Source: Candidatus Binatia bacterium (GTDB lineage Bacteria > Desulfobacterota > Binatia > HRBIN30). From it: a DNA stretch of 64,000 nt. The notes under the pieces are model-generated. The model did no database searches. It was not told where the DNA came from and was given only the letters and a program-made list of their open reading frames with translations. The DNA is taken from contig JBBRSP010000012.1 in the NCBI GenBank assembly GCA_038245295.1, forward strand, positions 32,001 to 96,000. The letters run 5' to 3'. A program made the translations under genes and the position numbers. How positions within the stretch are numbered: position 1 is the first letter of the stretch; each line of letters starts with the position of its first letter. Positions 1 to 61,747 of this stretch are shown one piece after another.

Positions 1-1161
1 AGCGTGATTTGGCACGTAATCGAGATCGCACTGCGGGTCCTGGTGCTCGTAGTTGATGGTTGGCGGTAGCGTCTGGTGGTGCAGCGCCAACGCCGTGTAC
101 GCCGCCTCAATGGCGCCGGCAGCACCCAGAGCGTGGCCGATCATCGACTTCGTCGAACTGACGGCCAGCTTCCACGCGTGCTCTCCGAAGACATGTTTGA
201 TGGCCGACGTTTCGTTGACGTCGTTGTACGGCGTCGACGTCCCGTGTGCGTTGATGTACCCGATGTCACTTGGTTGCAATCGCGCGTCGCTCAACGCGAG
301 CTGCATGCAGCGCGCCGCACCCGCACCTTCGGGAGCCGGAGTTGTAATGTGGTACGCATCGGAGTTGGCCGCATAGCCGGCGATCTCTGCATAGATCCGC
401 GCGCCGCGCGCCCGCGCCGCATCGAGAGTTTCAAGAACCAGGATGGCCGCGCCCTCCGACAGAACAAACCCGTCACGGTCGCGCTCGAAGGGGCGACTCG
501 CCCGTTGCGGCTCGTCATTACGCGTTGACAGGGCGCGCATGACGGCAAAGCCGGCAACCGACAACGGCGTCACGCCCGACTCCGTGCCACCGGCAAGCAT
601 GATGTCCTGGTAACCGAAGCGAATCTGGCGCGCCGATTCGCCAACCCCTTGTGTCCCCGAAGAACACGCACTCGTGGTGACGAAGTTGACGCCCTTGGCG
701 CCGAATCGCATGGCAATCTGCGCCGGAGCCATGTTGGAGATCAGGCGCGGTACAAAAAACGGGCTCACCTTTTTGATGCCGTCGATGGCGAACGCCTTGG
801 CGGTTTCTTCCATCGTCATCATCCCGCCCATGCCGGTGCCCAGAATCACGCCGGTCTGTTCGCCCTGCAGCGCCGCCAACGATAGCCCCGAATCGCGCAC
901 GGCCATCTCCGCTGCCGCCATGGCAAAGTGAGTAAACGAGTCGTTACGTCGCGCTTCTTTTTTTTCCATGAATTGCGTCGGGTCGAAGTCACGCACTTCG
1001 CCGGCGATCTGGACCGGAAGGCCGGCGGGATCGAAGCGAGTGATGCGGCCGACCCCTGACTCGCCGGCCATCAGACGAGTCCAATTGGACTTCAGGTCGT
1101 TGCCGAGCGGCGTTACCAGGCCGATGCCGGTGATGACAACGCGGCGTCCTTGTGCAGGCAT
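1..1161 (-). CDS. fabF: 3-oxoacyl-ACP synthase II (3' end runs off the window)
   Basis: Manual translation from ATG at 1161 (missing from the ORF track): [20 protein letters not shown]...TTSACSSG (catalytic Cys)...YINAHGTST...[14 protein letters not shown]. Confidence 0.95.
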
Positions 1162-1233: not shown

Positions 1234-1282
1234 AAACGAAAACGGGGAGCCTCGCTACTGCGAGACTCCCCGTTTCTTGTTT
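1234..1282 (-). terminator. Rho-independent terminator downstream of the scaffoldin-like gene
   Basis: Stem aaacggggag-c-ctcgc/tact/gcgag-a-ctccccgttt (1240-1275), followed on the minus strand by TTTTCGTTT. Confidence 0.8.
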
Positions 1283-1297
1283 CGGACTAACTACCGC

Positions 1298-3145
1298 TTA
1301 GCGTGAGCGGCGGCGAACAAACATCGCCAATGCCGGGATCAGCATCAGCCAGCCGGCACTGCTGCCGCCAACGGTGTTGATCTGGCAACCGTCCTCAGAT
1401 TCGACTCGTGATGGGCTCGGCGTGCCGCTTCCACCAGGCGTGTTCGTCGCTTCGCCGCGCGGCGTGTTCGTCTTCGTCGCCGTGGCCGTCAAGACGCTCT
1501 GAGCGGTACGGGTCGGGGTTGCCGATGCGACCACGACCGGGATTGTCGCTGTAGCGGTCGGCACCGGTGTGTTCACAACCGATCCCTCGACGCAGATGAC
1601 GCCGTTCTGGCTAGTTACACCGGCAACCTGTTGGCCAGCCGGCGTGCTCAGGATCGTTCCCGAGACGACGAGCTCAGCTCCACCCGCGACCGTAATGTTG
1701 CAGGTATAGAGGGTCGAGCCGCTAGCAATGGCCGAGACGTTCTCGGTCGACAACACGAGGGCACGCACCCCGGTGCAAGCACCGGCAGCGCAAGCGTTCG
1801 GGCGGAAGGCGAACGACGTTCCGGTCTTGTCGATATCCGGGTTGACGGCGCAATCCGGCTTGCCGTTGGCCTTACGATTGATCGAAGCGCCAGCCGGCAG
1901 GCTGATGTCGTTCTGCGATCCGGCCACATCCGTGTTCGAAACGAGCTTGACCGTGATGCTGCCGGTCGTTGTGCCAGACGGGAGGCCCTGGTCAACGATG
2001 TAGATCGCGTTGCCGGATGGCGCCGCCTTTGGCGACGGGCAGACGTTGCCAGCCGGGGTGGTCGGGGTCGGGCTCGGGTTGCCACCGCCACCGACACAGA
2101 TGATACCGTTCTGGCTGGTGACGCCGGCAACCTGCTGACCAACCGGGCTGCTCAGGATGGTGCCGGAAACGACCAGCTCAGCCCCACCAGCAACGGTGAT
2201 GTTGCAGGTGTAAAGGGTCGCACCGCTAACAATCGGGTCGACGTTCTCCGTCGACAACACGAGCGCACGCACCCCGGTGCAGGCACCGGCAGCGCAACCG
2301 TTCGGGCGGAAGGCAAAGGACGTTCCGGTCTTGTCGATGTCCGGGTTCACGGTGCAATCGGGCTTGCCGTTGGCCTTCCGATTGATGGAAGCGCCAGCCG
2401 GTAGGCTAATGTCGTTCTGCGTGCCAGCGACAGCGGTGTTGGAAGCCAACTTCACCGTGATGGTGCCGCTCGTGGCCCCAGCGGCGAGGTTCTGATCTTG
2501 GATATAAATCGCGTTGCCAGAGGGTGCAGGGCGCGGGTCAGCGCAGCTGCTGCCGGTGGTCGGCGTCGGCGTCGCCGGGGGCACGCCCGTCGTGTTGGTC
2601 GGAGTCGCAGTAAACCCACCGCCGCCACTCACGGTCACAGCTCCGTTTGTGCCAGTGGCAACTTCAACGCGCGTCCCCGTCGGATCGCTGGCGATGACGC
2701 CACTGATGGTGAGGGCTTTGTCACCACCCGTAGCCGAGCTCGCGATCGCGACTCGGCACGTGTAGAGGACAGAACCGTCGACAATGGCGTCGACATTCTC
2801 GGTCGACAACACGAGAGCGCGCACCGCGGTGCAAGTCTCGGCCGTGCAGGCGTTCGGACGGAACGCGAACGATGTTCCCGTCTTGTCGATGTCTGGATTG
2901 ACGGTGCAATCCGGCTTGCCATTCGCCTTGCGGGCGATCGGCGTGGTCGGATCAAAGGTAATGTCGTTTTGTGTACCGGCGACCTGTGCGCCTTCCGATG
3001 TCAGCGAGACGCTGACCGAGACGGTGGCCCCAGGGGCCCCCGAGGCACTGCCGACTACGATCTTGGCCGCCTGTGCTGCGTTCGCCCCCAAACCTAGGAC
3101 CGACGCGGCAAACAGCGCACCAAGAACCGCGATGCTTTTACGCAT
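1298..3145 (-). CDS. Secreted scaffoldin-like protein: signal peptide, three cohesin-like domains, Pro/Thr linkers, MYXO-CTERM-like anchor
   Basis: ATG 3145 after GAGGGAGGAG; signal MRKSIAVLGALFAASVLGLGANAAQA; cohesin-type pattern IVVGSASGAPGATVSVSVSL...VAGTQNDITFDP...DGSVLYTC...TNGAVTV with its core repeated 3 times; C-terminus GCQI...GWLMLIPALAMFVRRRSR. Confidence 0.8.
   Translation of the reverse strand: MRKSIAVLGALFAASVLGLGANAAQAAKIVVGSASGAPGATVSVSVSLTSEGAQVAGTQNDITFDPTTPIARKANGKPDCTVNPDIDKTGTSFAFRPNACTAETCTAVRALVLSTENVDAIVDGSVLYTCRVAIASSATGGDKALTISGVIASDPTGTRVEVATGTNGAVTVSGGGGFTATPTNTTGVPPATPTPTTGSSCADPRPAPSGNAIYIQDQNLAAGATSGTITVKLASNTAVAGTQNDISLPAGASINRKANGKPDCTVNPDIDKTGTSFAFRPNGCAAGACTGVRALVLSTENVDPIVSGATLYTCNITVAGGAELVVSGTILSSPVGQQVAGVTSQNGIICVGGGGNPSPTPTTPAGNVCPSPKAAPSGNAIYIVDQGLPSGTTTGSITVKLVSNTDVAGSQNDISLPAGASINRKANGKPDCAVNPDIDKTGTSFAFRPNACAAGACTGVRALVLSTENVSAIASGSTLYTCNITVAGGAELVVSGTILSTPAGQQVAGVTSQNGVICVEGSVVNTPVPTATATIPVVVASATPTRTAQSVLTATATKTNTPRGEATNTPGGSGTPSPSRVESEDGCQINTVGGSSAGWLMLIPALAMFVRRRSR
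1589..3064 (-). repeat. Three internal ~150-aa cohesin-like repeats (approx. 3064-2630, 2545-2093, 2041-1589)
   Basis: RKANGKPDC(T/A)VNPDIDKTGTSFAFRPN...VRALVLSTENV...LYTC occurs in all three; repeats 2 and 3 are offset by 504 bp. Confidence 0.95.
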
Positions 3146-3313
3146 GTTCACTCCTCCCTCAAAGTAGCTATCCGAATCGAAATGTTTCGGGTGTGCACCG
3201 AAGCGCACCCCGCTCCTACCTTAATTCGCGCACCGCCGTCTAGATACTTTCTACACTTTTCAGGCGGCTTTTTCGAAAATTCACTTTGGCGCTCCGGGTT
3301 GGTCGACTGCGTC

Positions 3314-4237
3314 TCACGAAGCTGGACAGCCGCCCAGGGCGTTGCTGACCGCCGCAACGATCTCATCGATCGTAATTTCTCCGTCACTATTGCGGTCACC
3401 AGCCGGGCACTGCGACGCCGGGGCGTTGCCAAGGGCCGCATTGACCATGATGATCAACTCGTCGACCGTGACCTCGCCATCGCCGCCGCAATCACCAAGG
3501 CACTTGTTCATCACCGAGACATTGCCATCGGTGATCGCTACCTGACTGGTGCTGCCGGCGCTGCATGGCGGTTGCCCGGTAATACGCACACACGTTACGT
3601 CCGTTCCAGCTTTGTCACCCGTCGACAAGAAGGCCGTGAACTGCGGCTTCGACGAGTTCACCGACTCCGTGTAGATATGCAGCGGCAACGTGCCCGAAGC
3701 GCTGGCTCCAACCTTGAGATCAATGTCGATGATGCGACCGTCCGGCAGCACGGGAATTTCGACGCCTGTGCCTTGCACCGGTAACGGATTCGGACCGAAG
3801 ACTACGACGTTGATGAAGGAATCAGGGGTAATGCCGCTTCCGTCCGCCGGACACAGGCAATGCGTTTTGCCGTTGGCACAAGCGGCGTTCTCGACCATCA
3901 GATTGAAATTGCTCAAGCTACTCGCGAGTCGCACAGAAGCCGGCAGGCCATTCGCGTCGAGGGTGCAATCGTTGAGCTTCAGGTTGGCGCCAACATCGAG
4001 CGTCAAGGCGAGCGCCGCAACTTCGTCGATCCCGGCGCCAGCGTTGCTATCGTTTGGACCTTGATTGAAGGTCACCCCGGTCGTCACCACGCCGCCCTTG
4101 GCAGCGCTGCCGGAGGCGACGCTGACCTTGGCGCAGTTGGCCGGATTGGGACACGGCGTGACCGATTGCGCCACCGCGACCTGCGCGATGCTCGCCACGG
4201 CCAACGCAATGAGGCAGCGGTAGTAGAGATTACCCAT
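3314..4237 (-). CDS. Secreted protein with a divergent cohesin-like domain and C-terminal dockerin-like domain (adaptor-scaffoldin-like); alternative start 4264
   Basis: Signal peptide; VSVASGSAAKGGVVT...LPDGRIIDIDLKVGASASGTLPL...DGNVSV, then CLGDCGGDGEVTVDELIIMVNAALG...CPAGDRNSDGEITIDEIVAAVSNALGGC. Confidence 0.75.
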   Translation of the reverse strand: MGNLYYRCLIALAVASIAQVAVAQSVTPCPNPANCAKVSVASGSAAKGGVVTTGVTFNQGPNDSNAGAGIDEVAALALTLDVGANLKLNDCTLDANGLPASVRLASSLSNFNLMVENAACANGKTHCLCPADGSGITPDSFINVVVFGPNPLPVQGTGVEIPVLPDGRIIDIDLKVGASASGTLPLHIYTESVNSSKPQFTAFLSTGDKAGTDVTCVRITGQPPCSAGSTSQVAITDGNVSVMNKCLGDCGGDGEVTVDELIIMVNAALGNAPASQCPAGDRNSDGEITIDEIVAAVSNALGGCPAS

Positions 4238-4260
4238 GGTTGGTTTCTTCCATTCAGCGT

Positions 4261-5592
4261 TCATTGAGCACACCCATTCAGTGCGTTGTTGACGGAAAGC
4301 AGGATTTCATCGATGGTCACTTCGCCGTTGCCATCCTTGTCACCAGCCAAACAAGTATCGACCTGGGCACTACCCAGCGCGATGTTCACCATGATCAGCA
4401 ACTCATCGACTGTGACCTCACCGTCGCCGGCGCAATCGCCGACGCACGCGGCGAGTTGGGTTTCATTCAACAGAACGCTGACCGTTTGCGTATCCTGGCC
4501 AACGGTTGCGATGTCGATCTTCTGATCCTTGTTGAGATCAACCCCGACGATCCCGGCGGGCGCGGCGCCGACATCAAACGGCACGTAGTCCGCAAAAGTA
4601 CCGTCACCTTTGCCCAAAATCACCGCGGCCTTATCCTCAAATTCGCTGGAGGTTGCAATATCGAGCTTGCCATCGCCGTCGAAGTCACCAATCGCACCGG
4701 CCAACGGTGACGAAGCGACGAGCGTCGTTGGCAAGAGCGGCGCGTCGAAGGTCAGGTCGCCGTGACCGATCAGGATGGCGACATCGTCGGAATCACCGTT
4801 GACCACCGCGATGTCGATCTTGCCATCGTTGTTGAAGTCGGCGGCCAGCACCGCGACCGGTCCGTCGATGACGTCCGCGGCGATCTCGGGCAGCGCTTCG
4901 AACGTCCCATCGCCATGGCCCTTAAGGATAGAGATCGAACCGATCCCATCGGTTCCACCCTGCGTGTTGGCAACCACGAGATCTACCTTGCCGTCGCTGT
5001 TGAGCTCGCGCGCCGTGATGTTCTCCGGCGCCGCACCAACCGCAATCGCGGTCGGCAAGCCGAAGGCCCCGGTCCCGGTTCCAAGCAGGATCGAAACGGT
5101 GTCGTCGAAACTATCCGCGGTGGCGACGTCGGCTTTGCCGTCGCCATTGAAGTCGCCTACGGCGATCCCTGCGGGGGACACACCGGTGTCGGTCGCGATG
5201 GGTTGGCCAAACGTCATCGAGCCCTGATTGGGCAACACCGTGACCGTATTGTCGACGCTATCCGCAGTAATGATATCGGGCTTGCCGTCGCCATTGAAAT
5301 CGCGAATCGCCACGGCAACAGGCAAAACGCCGACGTCGAGGTTCAACGCCGTCTCGAAGGTTCCGTCACCGTGGCCCTTAAGAACCGAAACATCGTCGGC
5401 ATCGCTATTGACGACAACCAAATCGATGTTCCCGTCGCCATCCAGATCCGCACTGGCGAGCGCCAACGGTGTAGTATCGACCACTGGTTCGGGCATCACC
5501 GCCGTGAACATCAACGTGGACTGCGCCCAAGCTGCCGCCATGATTACGGTGGACCCCAGAAGTGCGGCCGCCATCAATCGCTTCAAATACAT
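4261..5592 (-). CDS. Secreted FG-GAP/VCBS repeat beta-propeller with C-terminal dockerin-like domain
   Basis: RBS GGAGG; signal peptide; seven D(L/F)xxDGKxD-type repeats; C-terminal CVGDCAGDGEVTVDELL...CLAGDKDGNGEVTIDEILLSVNNALNGC. Confidence 0.85.
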   Translation of the reverse strand: MYLKRLMAAALLGSTVIMAAAWAQSTLMFTAVMPEPVVDTTPLALASADLDGDGNIDLVVVNSDADDVSVLKGHGDGTFETALNLDVGVLPVAVAIRDFNGDGKPDIITADSVDNTVTVLPNQGSMTFGQPIATDTGVSPAGIAVGDFNGDGKADVATADSFDDTVSILLGTGTGAFGLPTAIAVGAAPENITARELNSDGKVDLVVANTQGGTDGIGSISILKGHGDGTFEALPEIAADVIDGPVAVLAADFNNDGKIDIAVVNGDSDDVAILIGHGDLTFDAPLLPTTLVASSPLAGAIGDFDGDGKLDIATSSEFEDKAAVILGKGDGTFADYVPFDVGAAPAGIVGVDLNKDQKIDIATVGQDTQTVSVLLNETQLAACVGDCAGDGEVTVDELLIMVNIALGSAQVDTCLAGDKDGNGEVTIDEILLSVNNALNGCAQ

Positions 5593-41440: not shown

Positions 41441-42952
41441 CTACGGCTGTTGGATCGGACAGCCGTCCTGTACCCGTTCCACGGCGGCAAGCAGCTCGTC
41501 GATTGTTACCGCCGCATCGCCATTGCGATCCATGGGAGTACAGCGTGAAAGAGGGCTGACTTCGAGTGCGATCGCAACGCCGAGGACCAGCTCATCAATC
41601 GTTACGGCGTCGTCGCCATTGCAGTCTCCGAGACACGGTGGCTGATAGAGAGACTTCAGACGCTGCGTGCCTGCCGCCGTTCCATCCGTCACCCATAGGT
41701 CGAGCGGTTCGGAATTCCCTTCGCCGGTGGTGATGAAGGCAAGCGGACCAACTGGGGTAACGAATGACCGGCTTGGCAAATCAACCAACTTGACGGTCCC
41801 GGCTGGAGTGCCATCGGTGTGCCAGACCGAGAAGGCTGTATATTGAGCAACGGCGTACACCCCGTATCCAGCCGTCGGCGATAGGGATGGCACTGGAAAG
41901 AAGGCAGAGCTTTGCTGCTGCCTGATCTCGGCGAGAGACTCGCCGGCCCCGAAGACGTCTCCCACTTGCAAATCGAAGAGGCCGTCAGCCTGGTAACTGA
42001 GGCCGATGATCCGGTCGCCGTCGAGCACCGTCTGCGCAGCCCACGGTAGTGAGGCCATCACCGTACCTTCCGGGGTCCCATCGGTTCGGATCAGCCCTGG
42101 CATGAAGCCAACCGAGACGAAGGCGTAGTGGGCCGTGTGGAAGCGGAAGGTCTCGGCAAAGCTTGGGAGATCGAGCAGAGGAGAAGCCCCCGGCGGGGCA
42201 GAGGTCACCTGCCATAATTGCGGCTGCTGCGTACCACCCTTCACCAGGAACCAGAGGCGACCGTCGATCAGCAGCACATCCCCGGTGATCCCTCCGGTAA
42301 GTCCCAAGCCGCTGGGATTCGCGTCGACGAAGAGGTGCGTACCGTCTTCCGTTCCATCGGTCACCCACAACTCGCGGTCTGGAGCGGGGCTACTGGCAGC
42401 GAAGTACACGACATCTCCGACCACCGTGAGTGATCCCGGGATGGAGTCGATGCGGCCCGGGTTAATGTCCTTGACCAAGCGGGTGCCATCGGCCGTCCCA
42501 TCACTCACCCACAATTCCAACCCGGATTGGGGCGTTGCCAATTGGAACGCAACGAAGCCCGGCGCCGCGACCATTGCTCCCCGCACGCTTGTGCCGCGTA
42601 GCGATTGGGTGCCCAGGATGGACGCCACGAAGACCGTGCCCGCCGATGTCAGATTTGTCTTCCACAGCTCGACGCCCTCGCCACCGGGTAACTGCGCCGG
42701 GATGAGCAGGTAACAGTCCGGCCCCCGAACGGCGGTCAGGAGCACCCCTGGACCGCTGATCTCGGCAAAGCTCTCGGTACCCACAACCGTGCCGTCGCTG
42801 CGCCAAAGAGTCATACGACCTGCATCCGCGACGATGGCCAACAACTGGTTCCCGATGGCCACCGTCGCCGCAACGCCCGCCGCGGATGCTCTGCCCATGC
42901 CCGCTACAAACATCGCCAAGGCTGACACCAAAATCATCAAGATCCGAGACAC
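41441..42952 (-). CDS. Secreted ELWxxDGT-repeat beta-propeller with C-terminal dockerin-like domain
   Basis: GTG after GGGGAGGGG; signal peptide; LWRSDGT, ELWVSDGT, ELWVTDGT, DLWVTDGT repeats; CLGDCNGDDAVTIDEL...CTPMDRNGDAAVTIDELLAAV...GC. Confidence 0.85.
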   Translation of the reverse strand: MSRILMILVSALAMFVAGMGRASAAGVAATVAIGNQLLAIVADAGRMTLWRSDGTVVGTESFAEISGPGVLLTAVRGPDCYLLIPAQLPGGEGVELWKTNLTSAGTVFVASILGTQSLRGTSVRGAMVAAPGFVAFQLATPQSGLELWVSDGTADGTRLVKDINPGRIDSIPGSLTVVGDVVYFAASSPAPDRELWVTDGTEDGTHLFVDANPSGLGLTGGITGDVLLIDGRLWFLVKGGTQQPQLWQVTSAPPGASPLLDLPSFAETFRFHTAHYAFVSVGFMPGLIRTDGTPEGTVMASLPWAAQTVLDGDRIIGLSYQADGLFDLQVGDVFGAGESLAEIRQQQSSAFFPVPSLSPTAGYGVYAVAQYTAFSVWHTDGTPAGTVKLVDLPSRSFVTPVGPLAFITTGEGNSEPLDLWVTDGTAAGTQRLKSLYQPPCLGDCNGDDAVTIDELVLGVAIALEVSPLSRCTPMDRNGDAAVTIDELLAAVERVQDGCPIQQP

Positions 42953-43164
42953 GGCCCCTCCCCCTAAAAAACACTGCGTCCAAGGAACGTCTCCCCAATG
43001 GCGGACGATCTGACACACGGCAATCGTCGCTGTCAAAGGCTCTGGTGATTGTCGCGACCAGGTAGTGGGTCCATTTGAAAACCGAGGCAGTGAGGGATTC
43101 GTCATTCCTGCGAAAGAGACTGTCGATTTTCTCTGATTCATCGCTTGAGACTGCGCGAACACCC

Positions 43165-43927: not shown

Positions 43928-44728
43928 GTGCTGGTCTCCACCTCCAACCAAGCACTGGCGGCAGACCACCCTCCTGCCGCCGGCGAGACGCGCCCCTTGC
44001 AGCGGGCGCGTCTCGCCGCCCTCCCCTTACCCGGGCGGATTCATTTTGGCCTGACCACTCCGGAGCCGCTGCGTCGTTTATCGACGGGGCATACCGAGCT
44101 CGACGCGTTGCTCGCCGGTGGTGTGCCGCGCGGACGCATCAGTGAAATTCTCGGCTCGGCTTCTTCGGGGAAGACTACCGTGTTGTTGTCGTGTCTGGCG
44201 GCGGCGACGCGGCGGCAGGAAGTCGTAGCGTATGTCGATATCGCCAATGCCTTGAGTCCGGAGTCGGCGGCGCGGGCCGGCACCGATCTACGGCGTTTCC
44301 TGTGGGTGCGGCCGCCACACATCAAAGCCGGCTTCAAATGTGCCGAGTTATTGCTGCAAGCCGGCGGCTTTACCCTGGTGGCGCTTGATCTCGGCAACCA
44401 TCCGCCACAACGTCTGGCCGCCAATATCTGGCCGCGGCTACTGCACGGTGCCGAGCAATCTCAAACCGCCTTTATTGTTCTCGCCCGTGCGTGTGCGGCC
44501 GGCAGCTTTGCGGTGTTGAGTTTGCGTTTGCGGCCACAGCGGCCGCGTTGGTTGAACGGCGCCTGGCCATTGTTCGATGGCCTCGACAGTCGGGCGGTTC
44601 TGGAGCGCAACAAGCTGGGGATTCCCGGGGAGGGTTCGGTGGCGTTGCGGATGGGGCCTATGGGACAGATGGGACTTGAGGGGCGGATGGATGCGGAGGG
44701 ATCTGATCTTTTTTGTGCGGGCACGTGA
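43928..44728 (+). CDS. imuA: RecA-like ImuA protein
   Basis: LSTGHTELDALLAGGVPRGRISEILGSASSGKTT, FLWVRP; first gene of the imuA-imuB-dnaE2 cassette. Confidence 0.85.
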   Translation: MLVSTSNQALAADHPPAAGETRPLQRARLAALPLPGRIHFGLTTPEPLRRLSTGHTELDALLAGGVPRGRISEILGSASSGKTTVLLSCLAAATRRQEVVAYVDIANALSPESAARAGTDLRRFLWVRPPHIKAGFKCAELLLQAGGFTLVALDLGNHPPQRLAANIWPRLLHGAEQSQTAFIVLARACAAGSFAVLSLRLRPQRPRWLNGAWPLFDGLDSRAVLERNKLGIPGEGSVALRMGPMGQMGLEGRMDAEGSDLFCAGT

Positions 44729-46240
44729 GTGCGGCTCGCTTGTCTCTATGTTCCGCAATTTCCTTTGGCGGCGCTGCTGCGCAGTTCTCCGGAGCTCCGC
44801 GGCGAAGCCGTCGTCGTGGTCGAGCAGATTGCGCCGCGTGGCCGTATTGTTGCTGTCTCGGAAGCGGCCGAGCGGCGTGGCATTCGTTACGGCTCGAGTC
44901 TGGCGCAGGCGCATGGGATCGACGCCGAGGTGCAGGCGCGTGTCGTCTCGGTCGACACCATCGCCGCAGCCCAGGCTGCCCTGTGTGATGCCGCGGCTTC
45001 GTTCACGCCACGCCTCGAAGACGCCACCGAAGGTCTGGTCTATCTCGATCTGAGCGGACTAGGCGCGCTCTTCGAATCGGAGTTGCAACTAGCCCATGCA
45101 CTGTCGCGGCGCGCCTGGCAGCTTGGGTTGGAAGCCCAGGTTGGGGTCGGCAATTCCAAGAATGCGGCGCTGCTGGCGGCACGCCATGGCGGCGGCGTGC
45201 GGGTGATCCCGCCGCAAGAGGAATGGAGCTTCCTGGCGCCGGTGGCGATCAGCGCCCTCGAACCGAATCCGACGTTGGCGGCAACACTGCAGCGCTGGGG
45301 TATCCGCACGGTGGGCGATCTGGTGTCGCTGCCGGTGCAACAGATCGGCGCGCGCCTGGGTCCGGAAGGCACCGCCCTGTGGCATCGCGCTCGTGGGGAT
45401 GAGGATCGTCCGCTGGTGGCGCGCACCCTGCCGCTGCACTTCGAAGAAGGACAAGATCTCGACTATGGCATCGACAATCTGGAGCCGCTGCTGTTCGTGG
45501 CGCGCGGCCTGTTGGATCGACTGATCACACGCCTGGCGTTGCGCGGACTCATCTGTGGCGACTTGCGTTTGTCGTTACGTCTGGCCACACGCGGGCGTGA
45601 CGACCGCACCGTCACCATCGCCGCGCCGAGTAATGATCTCAAAGCCCTGCTGGCGTTGCTGCGCCTGCACCTCGAAAGCCATCCACCGGCCGCCGCAATC
45701 GAAGGCATCCGCCTGACGGCCCTGCCCGAACGCCTACGCGCTTCCCAACTCGATCTCTTTCTCCCACCCGGCCCGGCACCGGCCAAACTCGCCGTGACCC
45801 TGGCCCGCCTGTCGGCCCTGTGCGGCAGCGAACACGTCCGCGCCCCGGCCCTGGCCGACTCGTATCGACCGGATGCGTATCAGGTGGAGGAGTTCAGGGT
45901 CCAGGAGCAACAAGCGGTTGCGCGGTTAGGCGGTTACGCGGTCAAGGGAGCAACAACTCGCATAACCGCCAACCGCCTGGCTTTAGCTCTACGCGCCCTC
46001 CGACCGCCGCACGAGATCGAAGTATTCTGCAATCGCGACCGCCCCGACTTCGTGCGCGGGCCCCACTTTGCCGGACGTGTCGTGCAAGCCGCCGGCCCAT
46101 GGCGTGTGCACGGCGAGTGGTGGAGCGAAGGTGCCTACCTGCGCGACTACTACGATGCCTCGCTGAGCGACGGTGGGGTGTATCGCCTCTACTACGACGT
46201 GACGACACGCCGTTGGTTCGCGGATGCGCAGTACGACTGA
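44729..46240 (+). CDS. imuB: Y-family polymerase-like ImuB
   Basis: RLACLYVPQF, VYLDLSG, WGIRTVGDL, clamp-binding QLDLF, GPWRVHGEWW, RDYYD. Confidence 0.9.
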   Translation: MRLACLYVPQFPLAALLRSSPELRGEAVVVVEQIAPRGRIVAVSEAAERRGIRYGSSLAQAHGIDAEVQARVVSVDTIAAAQAALCDAAASFTPRLEDATEGLVYLDLSGLGALFESELQLAHALSRRAWQLGLEAQVGVGNSKNAALLAARHGGGVRVIPPQEEWSFLAPVAISALEPNPTLAATLQRWGIRTVGDLVSLPVQQIGARLGPEGTALWHRARGDEDRPLVARTLPLHFEEGQDLDYGIDNLEPLLFVARGLLDRLITRLALRGLICGDLRLSLRLATRGRDDRTVTIAAPSNDLKALLALLRLHLESHPPAAAIEGIRLTALPERLRASQLDLFLPPGPAPAKLAVTLARLSALCGSEHVRAPALADSYRPDAYQVEEFRVQEQQAVARLGGYAVKGATTRITANRLALALRALRPPHEIEVFCNRDRPDFVRGPHFAGRVVQAAGPWRVHGEWWSEGAYLRDYYDASLSDGGVYRLYYDVTTRRWFADAQYD

Positions 46241-46250
46241 AAAAGATTTC

Positions 46251-46725
46251 ACCGCAGAGGCGCAGAGCCGCCGAGCGAGAGACCGCAGAATTTGAAAGAG
46301 TACAACAGTGAAACGGGATCCTTTGACGAATTCAATCATCGGTGCAGCGATTGAAGTGCATCGGATCATGGGTCCCGGTCTCCTCGAAAGCATTTACGAG
46401 GATTGCCTGGCCTACGAACTGTCGCAACGTGGCCTTAGCTTCGAACGACAATACCCCCTCGTCATCACCTACAAAGGTCATCCAGTGGGAGCAAATTTGA
46501 AAATTGATCTTTGGGTCGAGAGGCGAGTAGTCGTTGAATTGAAGTCGCTGGCAACGTTGTTACCCGTCCATGAGGCGCAACTACTCACCTATCTCCGATT
46601 GAGTGGTTCTCCCGTCGGATTGCTCGTCAACTTCAACGTCCTCCTTCTCCGAGACTGCATCAAACGCATGGTTCATCACTACCAGACCCCTCATTCCGAT
46701 CTCGGTGCCTCTGCGCCTCTGCGGT
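46251..46725. mobile_element. GxxExxY gene unit bounded by 25-bp inverted repeats
   Basis: accgcagaggcgcagagccgccgag (46251-46275) versus ctcggtgcctctgcgcctctgcggt (46701-46725), 23/25 complementary. Confidence 0.55.
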
Positions 46726-46727
46726 AA
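46308..46727 (+). CDS. GxxExxY protein (PD-(D/E)XK nuclease-like)
   Basis: IIGAAIEVHRIMGPGLLESIYEDCL, IDLWVE, VELKS, EAQLLTYLRL, GLLVNF. Confidence 0.92.
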   Translation: MKRDPLTNSIIGAAIEVHRIMGPGLLESIYEDCLAYELSQRGLSFERQYPLVITYKGHPVGANLKIDLWVERRVVVELKSLATLLPVHEAQLLTYLRLSGSPVGLLVNFNVLLLRDCIKRMVHHYQTPHSDLGASAPLR

Positions 46728-49700
46728 TGAAATTCATCGAGCTCCACACGCGCAGCGCGTTCAGTTTCCTCGAAGGCGCTTCCCTCCCCGAGGGTCTCGT
46801 TGGGCGCGCCGCCGAGCTCGGCTACCCGGCGCTGGCCCTCAGCGACCGCGACGGCCTGTACAGCGCTCCACGTTTTCATCAAGCCGCCAAGAAGGCCGGT
46901 GTGCGGGCGATCATCGGGTGTGAGGTTACGCTGGTGGATTCTCATCCCAGCCTAGCCGCCAACCGCCTTGTCCTGCTGGCTTCCAACCGCAAAGGCTACC
47001 AAAACCTCAGCCGCCTGATCACGCAGACCAAGCTGCGCGCCGCCAAGGGCGCCTCGTCGGCGACCTGGAATGATCTGGAAGAGCACAGTGAAGGGCTCAT
47101 CTGTATTACCGGGGATCCATTGGACCACGCGGTTACGCGGCTACGCGGTTACGCGGTTCACGAAGAGGTGGATCGCCTAACCGCCTACCGCCTACCTATA
47201 TTGGATCGCCTACGTTCCCTCTTCCCCAACCGCCTCTACATCGAGTTGCAACGTCACCTTGATCCCGAGGAGGAGCGGCGCAATCGTTTCCTCATCGATG
47301 TCGCGACGCACTATGGCTTGCCGTTGGTGGCGACCAACGATGTGCGTCACGCCTTGCCGCAAGGCCGGCGATTGCTCGACATCCTCACATGCATTCGCGG
47401 CAAAACCACACTCGACGCCGCCGGGCGCTTGTTGCTCAACAATGCCGAGCGTCATTTGAAGTCGCCGGCTGAGATGGTGCGGCTGTTTCGCGATCGCCCC
47501 GACGCCATCACCAACACCCTGCGCATCGCCGAGCAATGCGAGTTCACACTCGCTGATCTCGGCTATCGTTTCCCCGACTATCCCTTGCCCGCCGGCGAGA
47601 CGCCGATGGGTCATCTGCGTGAGCTCACCGATGCCGGAGCACGCGGACGTTACGGCACGTTGAACACGCGGGTGAAGCGGCAACTCGAGCATGAGCTCAA
47701 CATCATCGGCAAGCTCAACCTGGCCGGCTACTTCCTGATCGTCTGGGACATCGTCGAGTTTTGCCGGCGCCACGGCATCCTGGCGCAGGGACGCGGCTCC
47801 GCTGCCAACTCGGCGGTTTGTTATTCGCTCGGCATCACCGCCGTCGATCCAATCGGCATGGAGCTTTTGTTTGAGCGTTTTCTTTCCGAAGAGCGCGGCG
47901 AGTGGCCGGATATCGACATCGATCTACCAAGCGGCGATCAACGCGAACGCGTCATTCAGTACGTCTACCAGCGTTACGGCGAACGCGGCGCGGCGATGAC
48001 CGCCAACGTCATCACCTACCGCACGCGCAGCGCCGTGCGGGAGGTCGGCAAGACCCTCGGTTTCTCGTTGGAGCAAGTCGACAAACTCTCGAAGCTGCTG
48101 CGGCGCTTCGAGTTCCGCGACAGCGACGACGATCTCGCCGTGCAGTTGCGCGAAGGCGGCGTCGACCCCCAGGCGCCACGTGTGCAGTTGCTGGTCGACA
48201 TGGTGCAGCAGATCCAGAACCTGCCGCGCCATCTCGGCCAACACTCCGGCGGCATGGTGATCGCGGCGGGGCGGCTCGACGCCGTGGTGCCGCTGGAGCC
48301 GGCGTCGATGCCCGGGCGTGTCGTCGTGCAATGGGACAAAGACGACTGCGCCGACCTCGGCATCATCAAGGTCGATCTGCTCGGCCTCGGCATGATGGCC
48401 GTGTTGGAAGAAACCATCCCGCTGATTCGTGAGCACGAAGGAGCCGACATCGACCTGGCGCATCTACCGGCCAACGATCCGAAGACCTACTCGATGCTGC
48501 AGCAGGCCGACACCATCGGCGTGTTTCAGGTCGAAAGTCGGGCTCAGATGGCGACCCTGCCGCGCATGAAGCCGACGTGTTTCTACGATCTCGTCGTCGA
48601 GGTAGCGATCATCCGACCAGGCCCGATCGTCGGCCAGATGGTGCATCCCTATCTCAATCGTCGCAACGGCCGCGAAGCGGTAACCTATGCCCATCCCGAC
48701 CTCGAGCCGATCCTCAAGCGCACTCTCGGTGTGCCGCTCTTCCAGGAGCAACTGTTGCGCATGGCCATGGTGTTGGCCGGCTTCACCGGCGGCGAAGCCG
48801 AGGAGTTGCGCCGCGCCATGGGTTTCAAACGTTCAACGGAGCGTATGCAGCAGATCGAAGAGCGACTGCGCAGCGGGATGTCCAAGCGCGGCATCAGCGG
48901 CGAGGCGCAAGATGAGATCGTGCGCGGCATCACCTCGTTTGCACTCTACGGGTTCCCCGAGAGTCACGCCGCCAGCTTCGCCTTGCTGGCCTATGCCTCG
49001 GCGTATCTGCGCGCGCACCACCACGCCGCCTTCGTGTGCGCCATGCTCAACAACTGGCCCATGGGTTTCTACCATCCCGCGACTTTGGTGAAGGATGCGC
49101 AGCGGCACGGCGTGCGGGTGCTGCCGATCGATGTGATGCGCTCGGGGTGGAAATGCGGCTTGGAAAAGACACCACGGCGGCACGGAGACACGAAGGAGTT
49201 GGCCGTTCGTTTGGGGCTACGTTACGTCACTGGCCTGCGTGAGGACACGGCCAGGCGCATCGAGCGTGAGCGTGCCGGGGCGACATTTTGTTCGCTGCCC
49301 GACGTCGTTCATCGCTGCGACCTGCGTGACGACGAAGCCCAGACCTTGGCGCATCTCGGCGCCTTTGCCTCGCTGGGTCCGGCACGTCGTGAGGCCTTGT
49401 GGCAAGTCACCGCCATCCCACGAGAACCGTTGTTCCGCGGGACAACCTCCGCGCCTCCGCGTCTCCGCGGCGAAGAATCCCCGTTGCCTGAGATGTCCGC
49501 CCTGGACCGCACCTTGGCCGACTACAAAGCCAGTGGACTCACGGTGGGCTCACACATCGTCAAGCATCAACGGGAAGAACTCAACGCCGCCGGCGTTCTG
49601 CGCTCTGTCGATCTCAAGAACGCACGCGACGGGCGCTGGGTAAAGATCGCCGGCCTGGTCATCGTGCGCCAACGGCCGGGGACAGCGAAGGGCATGTGCT

Positions 49701-50035
49701 TCATCACGCTAGAAGACGAAACCGGCACAAGCAACGCGGCGGTGATGCCGAACGTGTTTCAAAGGTATCGCGCCACGATTCACACCGCGGCCATGCTGCT
49801 GATCGAAGGACCGCTGCAACAAAAGGATGGAGTCACACATGTGCTGGCACAGCGTCTGAGCGAGATTCATTTGCCACAACAACAGATCGCCCAGCGCGGC
49901 ATGGGTTATCGCATGCGCACCACGCCTCAGGACAATGAGCCAGCTCTGCAACCCCTCGACCCCCAACGCCCAACCTCCGACCCGGCGGCTCCTGTGGCCG
50001 CTTTCATCCCGCCCAAGTCGCACGACTTCCGCTGA
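46727..50035 (+). CDS. dnaE2: Error-prone DNA polymerase DnaE2
   Basis: PHP domain FSFLEGAS; QGRGSAANS, LFERF, PDIDID, PRHLGQHSGG, GFPESHA, RQRPGTAKG, terminal SHDFR. Confidence 0.97.
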   Translation: MKFIELHTRSAFSFLEGASLPEGLVGRAAELGYPALALSDRDGLYSAPRFHQAAKKAGVRAIIGCEVTLVDSHPSLAANRLVLLASNRKGYQNLSRLITQTKLRAAKGASSATWNDLEEHSEGLICITGDPLDHAVTRLRGYAVHEEVDRLTAYRLPILDRLRSLFPNRLYIELQRHLDPEEERRNRFLIDVATHYGLPLVATNDVRHALPQGRRLLDILTCIRGKTTLDAAGRLLLNNAERHLKSPAEMVRLFRDRPDAITNTLRIAEQCEFTLADLGYRFPDYPLPAGETPMGHLRELTDAGARGRYGTLNTRVKRQLEHELNIIGKLNLAGYFLIVWDIVEFCRRHGILAQGRGSAANSAVCYSLGITAVDPIGMELLFERFLSEERGEWPDIDIDLPSGDQRERVIQYVYQRYGERGAAMTANVITYRTRSAVREVGKTLGFSLEQVDKLSKLLRRFEFRDSDDDLAVQLREGGVDPQAPRVQLLVDMVQQIQNLPRHLGQHSGGMVIAAGRLDAVVPLEPASMPGRVVVQWDKDDCADLGIIKVDLLGLGMMAVLEETIPLIREHEGADIDLAHLPANDPKTYSMLQQADTIGVFQVESRAQMATLPRMKPTCFYDLVVEVAIIRPGPIVGQMVHPYLNRRNGREAVTYAHPDLEPILKRTLGVPLFQEQLLRMAMVLAGFTGGEAEELRRAMGFKRSTERMQQIEERLRSGMSKRGISGEAQDEIVRGITSFALYGFPESHAASFALLAYASAYLRAHHHAAFVCAMLNNWPMGFYHPATLVKDAQRHGVRVLPIDVMRSGWKCGLEKTPRRHGDTKELAVRLGLRYVTGLREDTARRIERERAGATFCSLPDVVHRCDLRDDEAQTLAHLGAFASLGPARREALWQVTAIPREPLFRGTTSAPPRLRGEESPLPEMSALDRTLADYKASGLTVGSHIVKHQREELNAAGVLRSVDLKNARDGRWVKIAGLVIVRQRPGTAKGMCFITLEDETGTSNAAVMPNVFQRYRATIHTAAMLLIEGPLQQKDGVTHVLAQRLSEIHLPQQQIAQRGMGYRMRTTPQDNEPALQPLDPQRPTSDPAAPVAAFIPPKSHDFR

Positions 50036-58765: not shown

Positions 58766-61747
58766 GTGAGTCGTATCGTCCCAAACTACTTCGCTCCCAT
58801 CCGCGACGCGGCGCGCCGCCGTTGGGATCAACTCGAGGCCGACCCGGGGCTCGCTGGCCCGTGGTGGCAGTTGTTGCGACAGGTCGAAAGCCCGGCGCAC
58901 GTGCTCTCGGAGTTGTTGCAGAACGCTGACGATGCCGGCGCCGACGCCGCCACGGCGCGCGTCGACAACGGCTACTTCGAATTCGAACACAACGGCCACG
59001 ACTTCAGCGCCGAAGAGCTACGCTCGCTGTGTGAGTTCGGCAACTCGAGCAAGAAGAGCCTGCTCACCGTCGGCTTTCGCGGCGTCGGCTTCCGCTCCCT
59101 GTTCTCTCTCGGAGCCACCATCGAGGTGCTGACGCCGACCCTGACGATCCGCTTCGAGCGCCGCCGATTCACCGAACCGATCTGGCTCGACGACGCCAAC
59201 CCGACGTCTCAGACGCACATCCGTGTCCACCTCGATTCCGCCGCAACACACGCCGCCATCGCCGCTTCCCTCGCGCGCTGGCGTCAAACCGCCCTGCCCT
59301 TGCTGTTCTTCAACAACCTGAGGCGTCTGCGCCTCGACGCCAAGGAGCTCGCCATCGAAACGCAACAGCCGGGCCCATGCACCGGCGCTTCGATGGTTCG
59401 GCTGAGCGGCCAGCAGGATGACGTGTTGGTGTTGCGCTCGCCGGCAGAGGATTTCCCACTCGAGTGCCTGGAGGAGATTCGCCAGGAACGCGGCGCCTTC
59501 GATCTGCAACTTCCGCCCTGCGATGTGGTCGTCGTCTTCCACGGTGATGAGACCGGCCGTCTCTTCGTCGTCCTACCCACCGATGCGGTGTGGGACCTCG
59601 AGTTCTCCTGCCACGCACCGTTCCTGCAGGATCCGGCGCGAATGAAGATCAAAGATCCTACTTTGTCGCCGACCAACCGCTGGCTGCTCGAACGTGCCGG
59701 ACGCCTGCTTGGCGACACTCTCTCCACATGGTTGCATCGTACTGACCTGCCGCTGCGGCGCCGCGCCCAGGCCTATGGGGTCGTGCCGACACACCGCGAC
59801 ACACGTCCGGAAACCATCGGTGACGCGGCGGCGTTGATTGTGCGCCAGGCGTTTGGTCAGACGATCGAGTCGGCCGACGTGTTGCTCACCCACGACGGCA
59901 CCCTGACGCGTAAGGGCAAGGCTGTGAGCCTACCGTCGGTTGTCCTCGAGACGTGGGATGCCGATGTGGCGACGCGGCTCTTCGACCCGGCGCAACGTAC
60001 GCCCCTCTATCCCGAGATCGGCCGGCAAGCGCTGGCGCGCCTTGCCGACTGGGATCTCGTTGCCAGCATCGACGAGGCACAAGTGATCCGTCGCCTCAGC
60101 GAGCCGAACGGTCGCGTGCCGGCACCAAAGCCGGTCGAACGGCTACTGAGGCTGTGGCTGGCCTTGGCGCGGCGGGCGCAACACGACTGGAGCAGCCAGT
60201 CGGCCTGGACCAATGCGGCGATCGTGCCAGTCGTCGGCAGTCAGACCCTGGTGCGTGCACGGGATATCCTCGCCGACACACAACGCCCCCCCGAAATTTC
60301 CGAGGCGGAATGGAAGATGCTCACCAAGGCATTGCGCCCGCTCGACGGTCAATGGCGCAAGATCGTCGACGCCTTGCAGGAGGATCACGCGGCGGCGACG
60401 CGCAACATCGAACGTTTGGCGCGTCTGCGTCTGACGCGTGAAGACCACGGGCGATTGCAGTGGGCGCTCAACCTCAGCGGATTGACACAACCGCTCGCCA
60501 TCGCCCAACTCGTCGACAAAGCCTGCGCCACGGCCTTCACGCCGGAGAAGCCGGATACCGATGTCGCCATCTCTCTCACCGCCATGGTTGCCCGACTTGG
60601 CCTGCCGGCACCACACAGCCTGCGCTTCCGCTGCGCCGGCGGAATGTGGCGTGCCGCCACCCCGGGTCAGTCGGGCAAGGCCGATCTGCTGCTATCCGTC
60701 GACGCGGTCGCCGATCTGCGCCACCTGCTACCGCGTCACTGGTACGACGAACATGTAGTAGACACCCGGTACGAAGAAGCGTTCGCCAAGTCTGAGCGCG
60801 GCGTCTGGCGACAGTGGGCCCTCGATCCACAACGCGGCGGGCTGGCCAGTTTTCCGCTTCCGGAGGCTCAAACGCCAACCTTCTGGCGCGTGGAGGAGTT
60901 GGAAGACTTCTGCCGCGCGCGTGGCGGCCATCGCCCGACAACGGTGCCGTTTGCCAACAGCTACTTCGGCGTGCACGACTGGGATTGGAATCTCGATCTC
61001 ACCAACTTCTGGCGCGAACGTGGCGCGCAGGAGCCCGCCCTCTGGCAACACATCGCCGGCGCCATCGATCGATCGTGGTCGCCGAGTTGGGAAGAAAAAC
61101 TTGGTGCCGTCGCCTTCCAGTCCGGTCGCTTCCGTGAGCAGGCGTTATCGACGGGACGCCTGCGGGCCGGGTGGATCGAGCGATTGCAACAGGCGGGCAC
61201 TATGCCGCAACGATACCGGGACAACCGCCTTCCCACTGCTTCGGCGGAGGTCGACGGCAATGTACCCAGACTGTATCGCGTTGTTTTGCCGGTCCACGGA
61301 ATTGAGCGAGCCGCCGAAATCTACGCGCTGCTGTTGCAGATGCCGGGCCAGCGAGTTGCGCCGGATCGCCACGACTTCGACTGCGGTGGCACCATCCTCA
61401 GCTGCGTGGACAGCAACGCGGGTGGCGACGTCGGACAGCCAGGCGAGCGGGCGCGCCTGCAGGCGTCCGTCGCGATTGCGGTTACCGATCTCGACTCCGT
61501 CCACGAGCGGGCGCAACGTTCAGGGTGCCAGATCGGTGACGGTGGGGTTGTAAGCGCAGCGTCGGGAGAACGATTGTTGTGGGTGGCCGATCCTTTCGGC
61601 AACCGCATTGGTTTCGTAGATGACGCGTCGGTATTGCTCGGCCGCGACCCGGCACACGACAGCGTCGGGGCGACGCGCGACGGCAGCAAGCTGAGCAAAC
61701 ACACCGCGACCAATCGGGTGCGCGCCGATGCGGCGCGGCGCAGCTGA
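58766..61747 (+). CDS. Sacsin-like GHKL ATPase domain protein with a C-terminal VOC/glyoxalase-like domain
   Basis: LSELLQNADDA, HNG, GFRGVGFRSLF; C-terminal RVVLPVHGIERAAEIY...DLDSVHERA...DPFGNRIGF. Confidence 0.75.
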   Translation: MSRIVPNYFAPIRDAARRRWDQLEADPGLAGPWWQLLRQVESPAHVLSELLQNADDAGADAATARVDNGYFEFEHNGHDFSAEELRSLCEFGNSSKKSLLTVGFRGVGFRSLFSLGATIEVLTPTLTIRFERRRFTEPIWLDDANPTSQTHIRVHLDSAATHAAIAASLARWRQTALPLLFFNNLRRLRLDAKELAIETQQPGPCTGASMVRLSGQQDDVLVLRSPAEDFPLECLEEIRQERGAFDLQLPPCDVVVVFHGDETGRLFVVLPTDAVWDLEFSCHAPFLQDPARMKIKDPTLSPTNRWLLERAGRLLGDTLSTWLHRTDLPLRRRAQAYGVVPTHRDTRPETIGDAAALIVRQAFGQTIESADVLLTHDGTLTRKGKAVSLPSVVLETWDADVATRLFDPAQRTPLYPEIGRQALARLADWDLVASIDEAQVIRRLSEPNGRVPAPKPVERLLRLWLALARRAQHDWSSQSAWTNAAIVPVVGSQTLVRARDILADTQRPPEISEAEWKMLTKALRPLDGQWRKIVDALQEDHAAATRNIERLARLRLTREDHGRLQWALNLSGLTQPLAIAQLVDKACATAFTPEKPDTDVAISLTAMVARLGLPAPHSLRFRCAGGMWRAATPGQSGKADLLLSVDAVADLRHLLPRHWYDEHVVDTRYEEAFAKSERGVWRQWALDPQRGGLASFPLPEAQTPTFWRVEELEDFCRARGGHRPTTVPFANSYFGVHDWDWNLDLTNFWRERGAQEPALWQHIAGAIDRSWSPSWEEKLGAVAFQSGRFREQALSTGRLRAGWIERLQQAGTMPQRYRDNRLPTASAEVDGNVPRLYRVVLPVHGIERAAEIYALLLQMPGQRVAPDRHDFDCGGTILSCVDSNAGGDVGQPGERARLQASVAIAVTDLDSVHERAQRSGCQIGDGGVVSAASGERLLWVADPFGNRIGFVDDASVLLGRDPAHDSVGATRDGSKLSKHTATNRVRADAARRS

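Follow-up and report, generated by a model that had tools for sequence, protein, structure and literature searches.

The clostridial and ruminococcal cellulosomes, represented by the Clostridium thermocellum scaffoldin CipA and by the CohA2-Doc0917 pair (6kgc), combine the cohesin fold, dockerins with twin Ca-loop/helix units, Pro/Thr linkers, anchored as well as adaptor scaffolds, and a large repertoire of tagged proteins. Counterparts of all these elements are recognised in the system described here, centred on a three-gene operon at positions 1298-5592 of a 64,000-nucleotide stretch of DNA (hereafter the window; G000:C12:32001-96000) from contig JBBRSP010000012.1 of a Candidatus Binatia bacterium (assembly GCA_038245295.1; 6.63 Mb in 129 contigs, 96.6% complete and 3.35% contaminated). 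Unlike cellulosomes, the Binatia system belongs to a lipopolysaccharide (LPS)-bearing diderm and probably relies on MYXO-CTERM-like or lipoprotein anchoring where cellulosomes use SLH or sortase anchors; its modules are probably disulfide-bonded, its dockerin-like modules have Glu at position 12 of the Ca loop, CBM3 and GH9 were not found in the genome, and the cargo consists mostly of propellers and uncharacterised proteins, together with peptidases and multiheme cytochromes.

Cohesin-dockerin assemblies outside the cellulosomes have been proposed before, and the comparisons that follow hold for the available parts of the sources cited. The planctosome of freshwater Planctomycetes (Nemodlikiaceae) is a hypothetical non-cellulosomal complex with an anchor, an adaptor and peptidase cargo (PMC6461901); like the Binatia system, it is placed in a diderm and is known as a proposal, but it has a Lamin-tail anchor and peptidase-centred cargo, whereas in Binatia the scaffold has three cohesins and a Cys sorting tail, about 120 genes are tagged and a core operon is found across the order. 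In Ca. Stygibacter (Cloacimonadota), a cellulosome-like complex was deduced from metagenome-assembled genomes (PMC8542988); here too a multi-cohesin scaffoldin occurs with dockerin-tagged peptidases and glycoside hydrolases, but this is a single protein of 3,755 amino acids (aa) with CBM2/CBM3 and a C-terminal domain (CTD) and with few named cargos, whereas the Binatia scaffolds are small and devoid of CBM. Anaerobic methanotrophic (ANME) archaea and their syntrophic sulfate reducers encode scaffoldin-like proteins with up to five cohesins and non-hydrolytic cargo, for which a role in attachment or adhesion was proposed (PMC9012536, PMC10553843); the ANME cargo comprises mostly ABC substrate-binding and S-layer proteins and, unlike in Binatia, no sorting-tail-anchored scaffold is described in the available text. 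A mucinolysome has also been proposed in Limousia (PMC12997984). The original prediction for this locus, a note made by a model from the sequence alone, knew of no functional description of such a system and left its novelty open; non-cellulosomal systems in diderms had already been put forward (PMC6461901, PMC8542988, PMC10553843). A cohesin-dockerin or cellulosome system of Binatia was not found in the literature, supplements and most subscription journals being outside the search; the Binatota genomics paper (PMC8262859) does not mention dockerins in its main text, and Binatia are not named in the main text of a 2024 cellulosome survey (PMC11557425) or in that of a study on surface sorting in Myxococcus xanthus (PMC11980579).

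In one order of the Binatia, proteins would be displayed on the surface by a general system whose conserved core is this operon. The dockerin would be a retention tag used again and again, on peptidases, on redox proteins, on many uncharacterised propellers and on a few enzymes acting on polysaccharides, with no cellulase set; about 120 different secreted proteins, mostly not cellulases, would thus be hung on the cell surface by a plug-and-socket pairing. As judged from the sequences, we consider it probable that the order-wide cohesin-dockerin repertoire works as such a platform; surface display is favoured because the two modules are found together in 41 of 41 genomes, the gene order is kept in 31 of 40 relatives, the module classes co-locate in 18 of 18 loci, the presumed docking face is better conserved than the other, and export genes are present.

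The interval 1298-5592 is filled by three co-oriented open reading frames (ORFs) on the minus strand, each with an ATG, a GGAG/GGAAG ribosome-binding site and a signal-peptide-like N-terminus, in agreement with the three co-oriented secreted-protein genes originally predicted. P3 (4261..5592), whose start at ATG 5592 was placed by the ribosome-binding site, codes for a secreted protein of 443 aa with a signal peptide, a seven-bladed FG-GAP propeller and a C-terminal dockerin-like module, and its upstream position in the operon is kept in relatives. P2 (3314..4237) starts at ATG 4237, the GTG 4273 of the ORF caller being probably too early, and codes for a secreted, probable adaptor of 307 aa with a divergent Cys-rich cohesin-like domain and a dockerin. 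The scaffoldin-like protein (1298..3145), starting at ATG 3145 and not at GTG 3208 on the basis of the ribosome-binding site, has 615 aa and comprises a signal peptide, three cohesins, Pro/Thr linkers and a C-terminal sorting tail. That the host is an LPS-bearing diderm, as previously assumed, follows from LolCE, BamA, LpxA, LpxB and MsbA, all of which pass NCBIfam cut-offs within the window.

The scaffoldin contains three tandem repeats of about 150 aa, Pro/Thr linkers with 37-53% P+T, and a Cys/transmembrane/Arg-rich tail; repeat 1 (2618..3067) is 58% identical to repeat 2 (2087..2527) and 56% to repeat 3 (1580..2023), while repeats 2 and 3 share 127 of 147 residues. This is the repeat architecture expected from the first reading of the locus, which had also recognised a cohesin pattern in repeat 1. 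Indeed, isolated repeat 1 scores 27.0 bits on PF00963, above the cut-off of 24.1, the whole scaffoldin remaining below it with 21.1 bits. Among 27 cohesins of the genome, nine match Pfam Cohesin at E <=0.01 and repeats 2 and 3 are not among them; a profile built from the 27 copies retrieves solved cohesins at E 1.2e-7. The AlphaFold2 (AF2) model of repeat 1 (mean predicted local distance difference test, pLDDT, 94) is a nine-stranded jelly roll that superposes on Clostridium acetobutylicum CohA2 (6kgc) with Z 18.8 and a root-mean-square deviation (rmsd) of 1.9 Å over 136 residues (Foldseek E 1.7e-10). In VIA-align, its top 20 rows are all cohesin entries, with Z 12.9-18.8, and the first other fold follows at 11.2. 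The scaffold repeats are thus cohesin-family domains, repeat 1 by Pfam and model, repeats 2 and 3 by their 56-58% identity to it. Additional features of the Binatia family are a Cys pair that is nearly invariant and a loop insert containing Cys, and these extra Cys probably form disulfides.

Both P3 and P2 end in the twin Ca-loop/helix tail that had been noticed at the outset (4264..4449 and 3317..3505, respectively; 63% identical), referred to here as the tag; that of P3 has four Cys, two Ca loops with Glu at position 12, and two helices. When the P3 tag model (AF2 pLDDT 95) was searched with VIA-align, the top 13 rows were all dockerins, with Z 4.3-6.7, the next being 3.3; Foldseek also ranked dockerins first, with template modelling (TM) scores of about 0.55-0.67 versus 0.3-0.4 for EF-hand proteins and rmsd of 2.5-4 Å versus about 11 Å for calmodulin-type/EF-hand chains. 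The model shows the duplicated Ca loop and helix with antiparallel helices, a geometry of dockerins and not of EF-hands; the dockerin-like fold proposed for the tails is therefore upheld, with modest scores. Sequence profiles are less discriminating: on PF00404 (cut-off 22.9 bits, whole-protein scores), P3 reaches 18.8 bits and P2 has no match, three other ORFs being above the cut-off. A tag profile run against the sequences of solved structures returned mostly EF-hand proteins, the best dockerin being 5lxv_B at E 0.004; consequently, only the fold search separates dockerin from EF-hand. Loop positions 9-13, 17, 20 and 21 show the same consensus in both halves of the tag; in clostridial dockerins, such half-to-half symmetry goes with dual-mode binding. 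The first and last Cys are both present in 93 of 108 tags, both absent in nine, some of which are paralogues, and discordant in six, at least five of which reflect trimming or parsing; this joint retention or loss suggests an N-to-C disulfide clasp. Overall, a dockerin is the best model for the tails, with Glu at loop position 12 and probably with a disulfide clasp.

The seven-repeat FG-GAP propeller originally described for the tagged P3 was found as such (4459..5520; FG-GAP_3 E 1.6e-52, seven DxDxDG loops). The view that the dockerin-bearing proteins of the locus are propellers holds for P3 only: P2 has no propeller, and its N-terminal domain (3500..4138), with inserted disulfide-rich loops, aligns with Binatia cohesins in hhalign at probabilities of 72-78.5% (E 1.7e-5 for the highest), versus at most 1.2% in 21 controls with reversed or shuffled input. 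Among P2 orthologues, Cohesin is the Pfam family most often matched weakly (10 of 30, best E 0.0049), the P2 of the window having none, and the Atlas neighbour of P2 at 0.89 carries Cohesin on 13% of its members; the N-domain profile retrieved two cohesins from PDB sequences at E 0.4, which is not significant. Reading this domain as a divergent cohesin, P2 is probably an adaptor and not cargo. Of the 41 genomes examined in the order, 40 contain it, 35 with a single match and five with two.

The scaffoldin ends in a MYXO-CTERM-like sorting tail with a Cys motif, a transmembrane helix and an Arg cluster (1301..1402), consistent with the C-terminal anchor that had been predicted; on GlyGly-CTERM it scores 15.7 bits, just above the cut-off of 15.5. 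Eleven of 20 related tails pass TIGR03901, and Cys is present in the related tails inspected; a Cys-dependent route is, on account of these 11 tails, the more likely way in which the scaffoldin would be sorted to the surface. The genome encodes GspC, D, E, F, G and L of a type II secretion system above cut-off and a myxosortase-family protease (Mrt_core 100.6, cut-off 100). The corresponding pathway, MYXO-CTERM and myxosortase, is taken from the available text of PMC11980579 and bioRxiv 10.1101/2023.06.07.544157; the M. xanthus tails share the Cys motif, the transmembrane helix and the Arg cluster, but in Binatia the tail belongs to a scaffold through which many proteins could be displayed in trans, cohesins being absent from the main text of PMC11980579. 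Besides the scaffoldin of the window, with three cohesins and a sorting tail, two further scaffolds look anchored, i.e., a two-cohesin protein passing MYXO-CTERM (C11) and a five-cohesin protein with a lipobox-like start (C31). The latter (L084; G000:C31:68228-72187) is an ORF of 1,319 aa with C-terminal CHRD domains. MYXO-CTERM-like tails without a detected cohesin are found on an S8-like/FG-GAP protein (G000:C22:23551-27867), a TolB-like propeller (C14:91388-93391), a double FG-GAP protein (G000:C35:19644-22655) and a PHP-type metallohydrolase (C7:10294-11895).

Counting of the tails over the genome, which the original prediction had suggested, with a profile from the same genome gave 124 tags in 123 ORFs on 47 contigs, five of them partial and a few of the ORFs being short fragments; an independent search gave 120 tag matches among the 150 of 220 candidates that were scored. 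Cohesins amount to 28 domains in 18 ORFs (E <1e-5), and both modules are present in nine ORFs. In a Pfam scan of all 123 tagged ORFs (best five families per ORF), 14 have catalytic or redox families at or above cut-off. Hydrolases and peptidases are represented by GH10, a heparinase II/III-like protein, peptidases M10, S1, S8 and M23, a carboxylesterase and a phosphoesterase; redox proteins by a glucose/sorbosone dehydrogenase, two MauG-type proteins, a cytochrome P460 as well as a pair of multiheme cytochromes, one with 10 CxxCH motifs (G000:C5:218776-221448, L037) and one with nine (G000:C7:143720-146362, L048), both with MtrC/MtrF-like Pfam matches. Sixty-five of the 123 have no Pfam family beyond EF-hand or cohesin, and the remaining ones are mostly propellers, beta-helices and Ig-like repeats. 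Neither GH9 nor CBM3 was detected in the 96.6% complete genome, in searches whose positive controls gave matches; none of the three GH5 ORFs is tagged, and the Pfam scan of the scaffoldin revealed no substrate-binding module. The system is thus neither a cellulosome nor enzyme-free, and the cargo cannot be called non-enzymatic, as it had been, one of the 14 being a glycoside hydrolase of GH10.

Some neighbouring arrangements deserve mention. The tagged cytochrome with 10 CxxCH motifs adjoins ORFs with 7, 12 and 4 heme motifs, and at G000:C15:108124-110481 (L065) a gene for MbnP, with half a tag, is adjacent to one for a di-heme MauG/MbnH-like protein with a full tag. Half tags, made of one Ca loop and helix between two Cys, are fused to Lcl_C, YHYH and MbnP domains (L017, L069, L094:17341-18558, L065:18550-19566). 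In L098:4-2160 and L096, Dockerin_1 is above cut-off where the Binatia tag profile is silent, and disintegrin-like repeat proteins adjoin; these matches suggest a third dockerin class. L068 (G000:C18:39053-41878) has three cohesins and a dockerin, the first cohesin match crossing two 5′ TGA stops, and this ORF may be broken or frameshifted.

Tags (5 to at least 143 matches) and cohesins (5-49) are both present in 41 of 41 genomes of the order. In a class-wide sample, tags were found in 15 of 15 other genomes of the order versus 2 of 105 from other orders, with one or two matches each; a phylum-wide search, with 41 candidates scored per genome, found the tag in 2 of 151 genomes, both of this order. 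In 31 of 40 relatives the three genes follow each other as propeller-tag, P2-tag and cohesin gene, the count leaving aside the second copies of P2 in G012, G029 and G038; of the other nine, one has no P2 match, two lie at a downstream contig edge, and six have no detected neighbour or tag. Matches to a second cohesin class (query C11:89792-90367) were obtained in 22 of the 41 genomes; at 18 of 18 orthologous loci, the tags of the adjacent gene are all variant (GNE-, VNE- or VTD-type), the generic TVDE/TIDE loop being absent, while of four weak-match loci one is mixed and the other three show generic loops only. In the genome studied here, 2 of the 124 tags are variant. Among 176 non-redundant cohesins, the outward positions on strands 3, 5 and 6, which we take to be the docking face in solved complexes, are more conserved than the other face (2.35 versus 3.18 bits, p 0.0015; facing from strand alternation). 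In one genus (G001, G015; L175, L176), the tag of P2 has changed to the second (FGNE) class, and a further gene, for an adaptor with a cohesin and an FGNE tag, is inserted before the anchored scaffold; a loss of the scaffold anchor in this genus (g2), with a second-class dockerin in its place, was ruled out, the anchored cohesin gene lying one gene further, behind the inserted adaptor.

Several of these results weigh against surface display by cohesin-dockerin pairing. Asp is usual at Ca-loop position 12 of dockerins and Glu in EF-hands, and the Binatia tags have Glu in 102 of 108 first loops and 96 of 108 second loops; at E <=0.01, EF-hand_1 matches 93 of 108 tags and Dockerin_1 22. The dockerin match of the model is modest, with Z not above 6.7 and no Foldseek match at E 0.001 or better. 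Anchored cohesins are only 10, on three scaffolds, for about 120 tags; the scaffoldin tail, with 16.6 bits on TIGR03901, is below the cut-off of 20, and the myxosortase-family protease passes its own by only 0.6 bits. The 18 second-class loci are orthologous and therefore count as one inherited event, the variant-tag motifs were written after seeing the data, and the comparison of the cohesin faces did not use coordinates and left out strand 8.

Some of these points would be accounted for if the modules did not bind each other at all, the tag being an EF-hand-like Ca stabiliser, a secretion signal, or an LPS- or exopolysaccharide (EPS)-binding tag, and the repeats a cohesin-fold adhesin or spacer; the stronger Pfam match to EF-hands, Glu at position 12, the modest structural scores of the tag and its large excess over anchored cohesins all fit such a role. 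The tag model, however, has dockerin geometry, far closer to dockerins (2.5-4 Å) than to calmodulin-type chains (about 11 Å), and the two modules share operons and lineage range, with co-location of their variant classes, which makes this explanation improbable. It is a little less so, but still unlikely, that the pairs bind and that their main task is structural, with P2-like adaptors chained head to tail into a lattice, a filament, a biofilm matrix or a cell-cell link, and enzymes as passengers. In its favour are the presence of P2 with its cohesin-like domain and dockerin in 40 of 41 genomes, as a single copy in 35, the nine further proteins of the genome carrying both modules, the 65 of 123 tagged ORFs without a Pfam family beyond EF-hand or cohesin, and the treatment of cohesin-dockerin proteins as adhesins in the available accounts of consortia of ANME and sulfate-reducing bacteria (PMC9012536, PMC10553843). 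On the other hand, the self-complementarity of P2 is only putative and its cohesin assignment weak, and the tag is found on clearly catalytic and redox proteins; a structural role is, moreover, compatible with surface display. Finally, a dedicated machine for the degradation of polysaccharide or protein, similar to a cellulosome or a planctosome, could be seen in the tagged GH10, the heparinase II/III-like protein, the four peptidase families and the carboxylesterase. Such enzymes, however, are a small minority of the 123, the genome search for GH9 and CBM3 was negative, none of the three GH5 ORFs bears a tag and no substrate-binding module was seen on the scaffoldin, so that this last possibility appears the most remote.

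Surface display thus remains the preferred reading, and a more elaborate form of it can be imagined, which we regard as speculative and rather doubtful: an order-wide, disulfide-stabilised, two-class cohesin-dockerin code that organises the extracellular proteome, in which the MYXO-CTERM-anchored scaffold and a self-chaining P2 would form a branched surface lattice for 24-140 plug-in proteins per genome, including MtrC-like cytochromes with 9-10 hemes, a MauG/MbnP copper-type pair and peptidases. If true, extracellular electron transfer and catalysis would be plugged into a chassis of the cellulosome type, comparable in scale to the large cellulosomes but overlooked by annotation because most of its modules score under the Pfam thresholds.

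What surprises in the system is its scale, the anchor with a sorting tail and the presence of cytochromes among the cargo. If the pairs bind, this would be among the largest cohesin-dockerin repertoires outside the cellulolytic Firmicutes, and a diderm would display many proteins through one lipid-anchored scaffold. In a lineage that is widespread and uncultured, surface display would also tell where dozens of hypothetical proteins per genome are located in the cell, and would provide a source of disulfide-stabilised, probably orthogonal cohesin-dockerin pairs for designer assemblies; the role of non-cellulosomal cohesin-dockerin systems becomes testable with small recombinant domains, without culture.

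As for the surroundings of the operon, a strong hairpin ending in a U run lies just 3′ of the scaffoldin stop (1236..1276, minus strand; z -6.7, none of 200 shuffles being equally stable) and is a probable intrinsic terminator; a consensus scan of the locus found no promoter above chance, and also missed this hairpin. The operon is followed by a putative fabF-like gene (window 1-1160), and lysS, lolCE, bamA and lipid A/LPS genes are located nearby (window 11337-31604). The window contains a fourth dockerin-tagged gene (41441..43162, minus strand), coding for an ELWxxDGT-repeat protein that is a candidate cargo in trans; an imuA-imuB-dnaE2-like mutagenesis cassette and a protein with a sacsin-like ATP-binding domain are found at 43928-50035 and 58766-61747.

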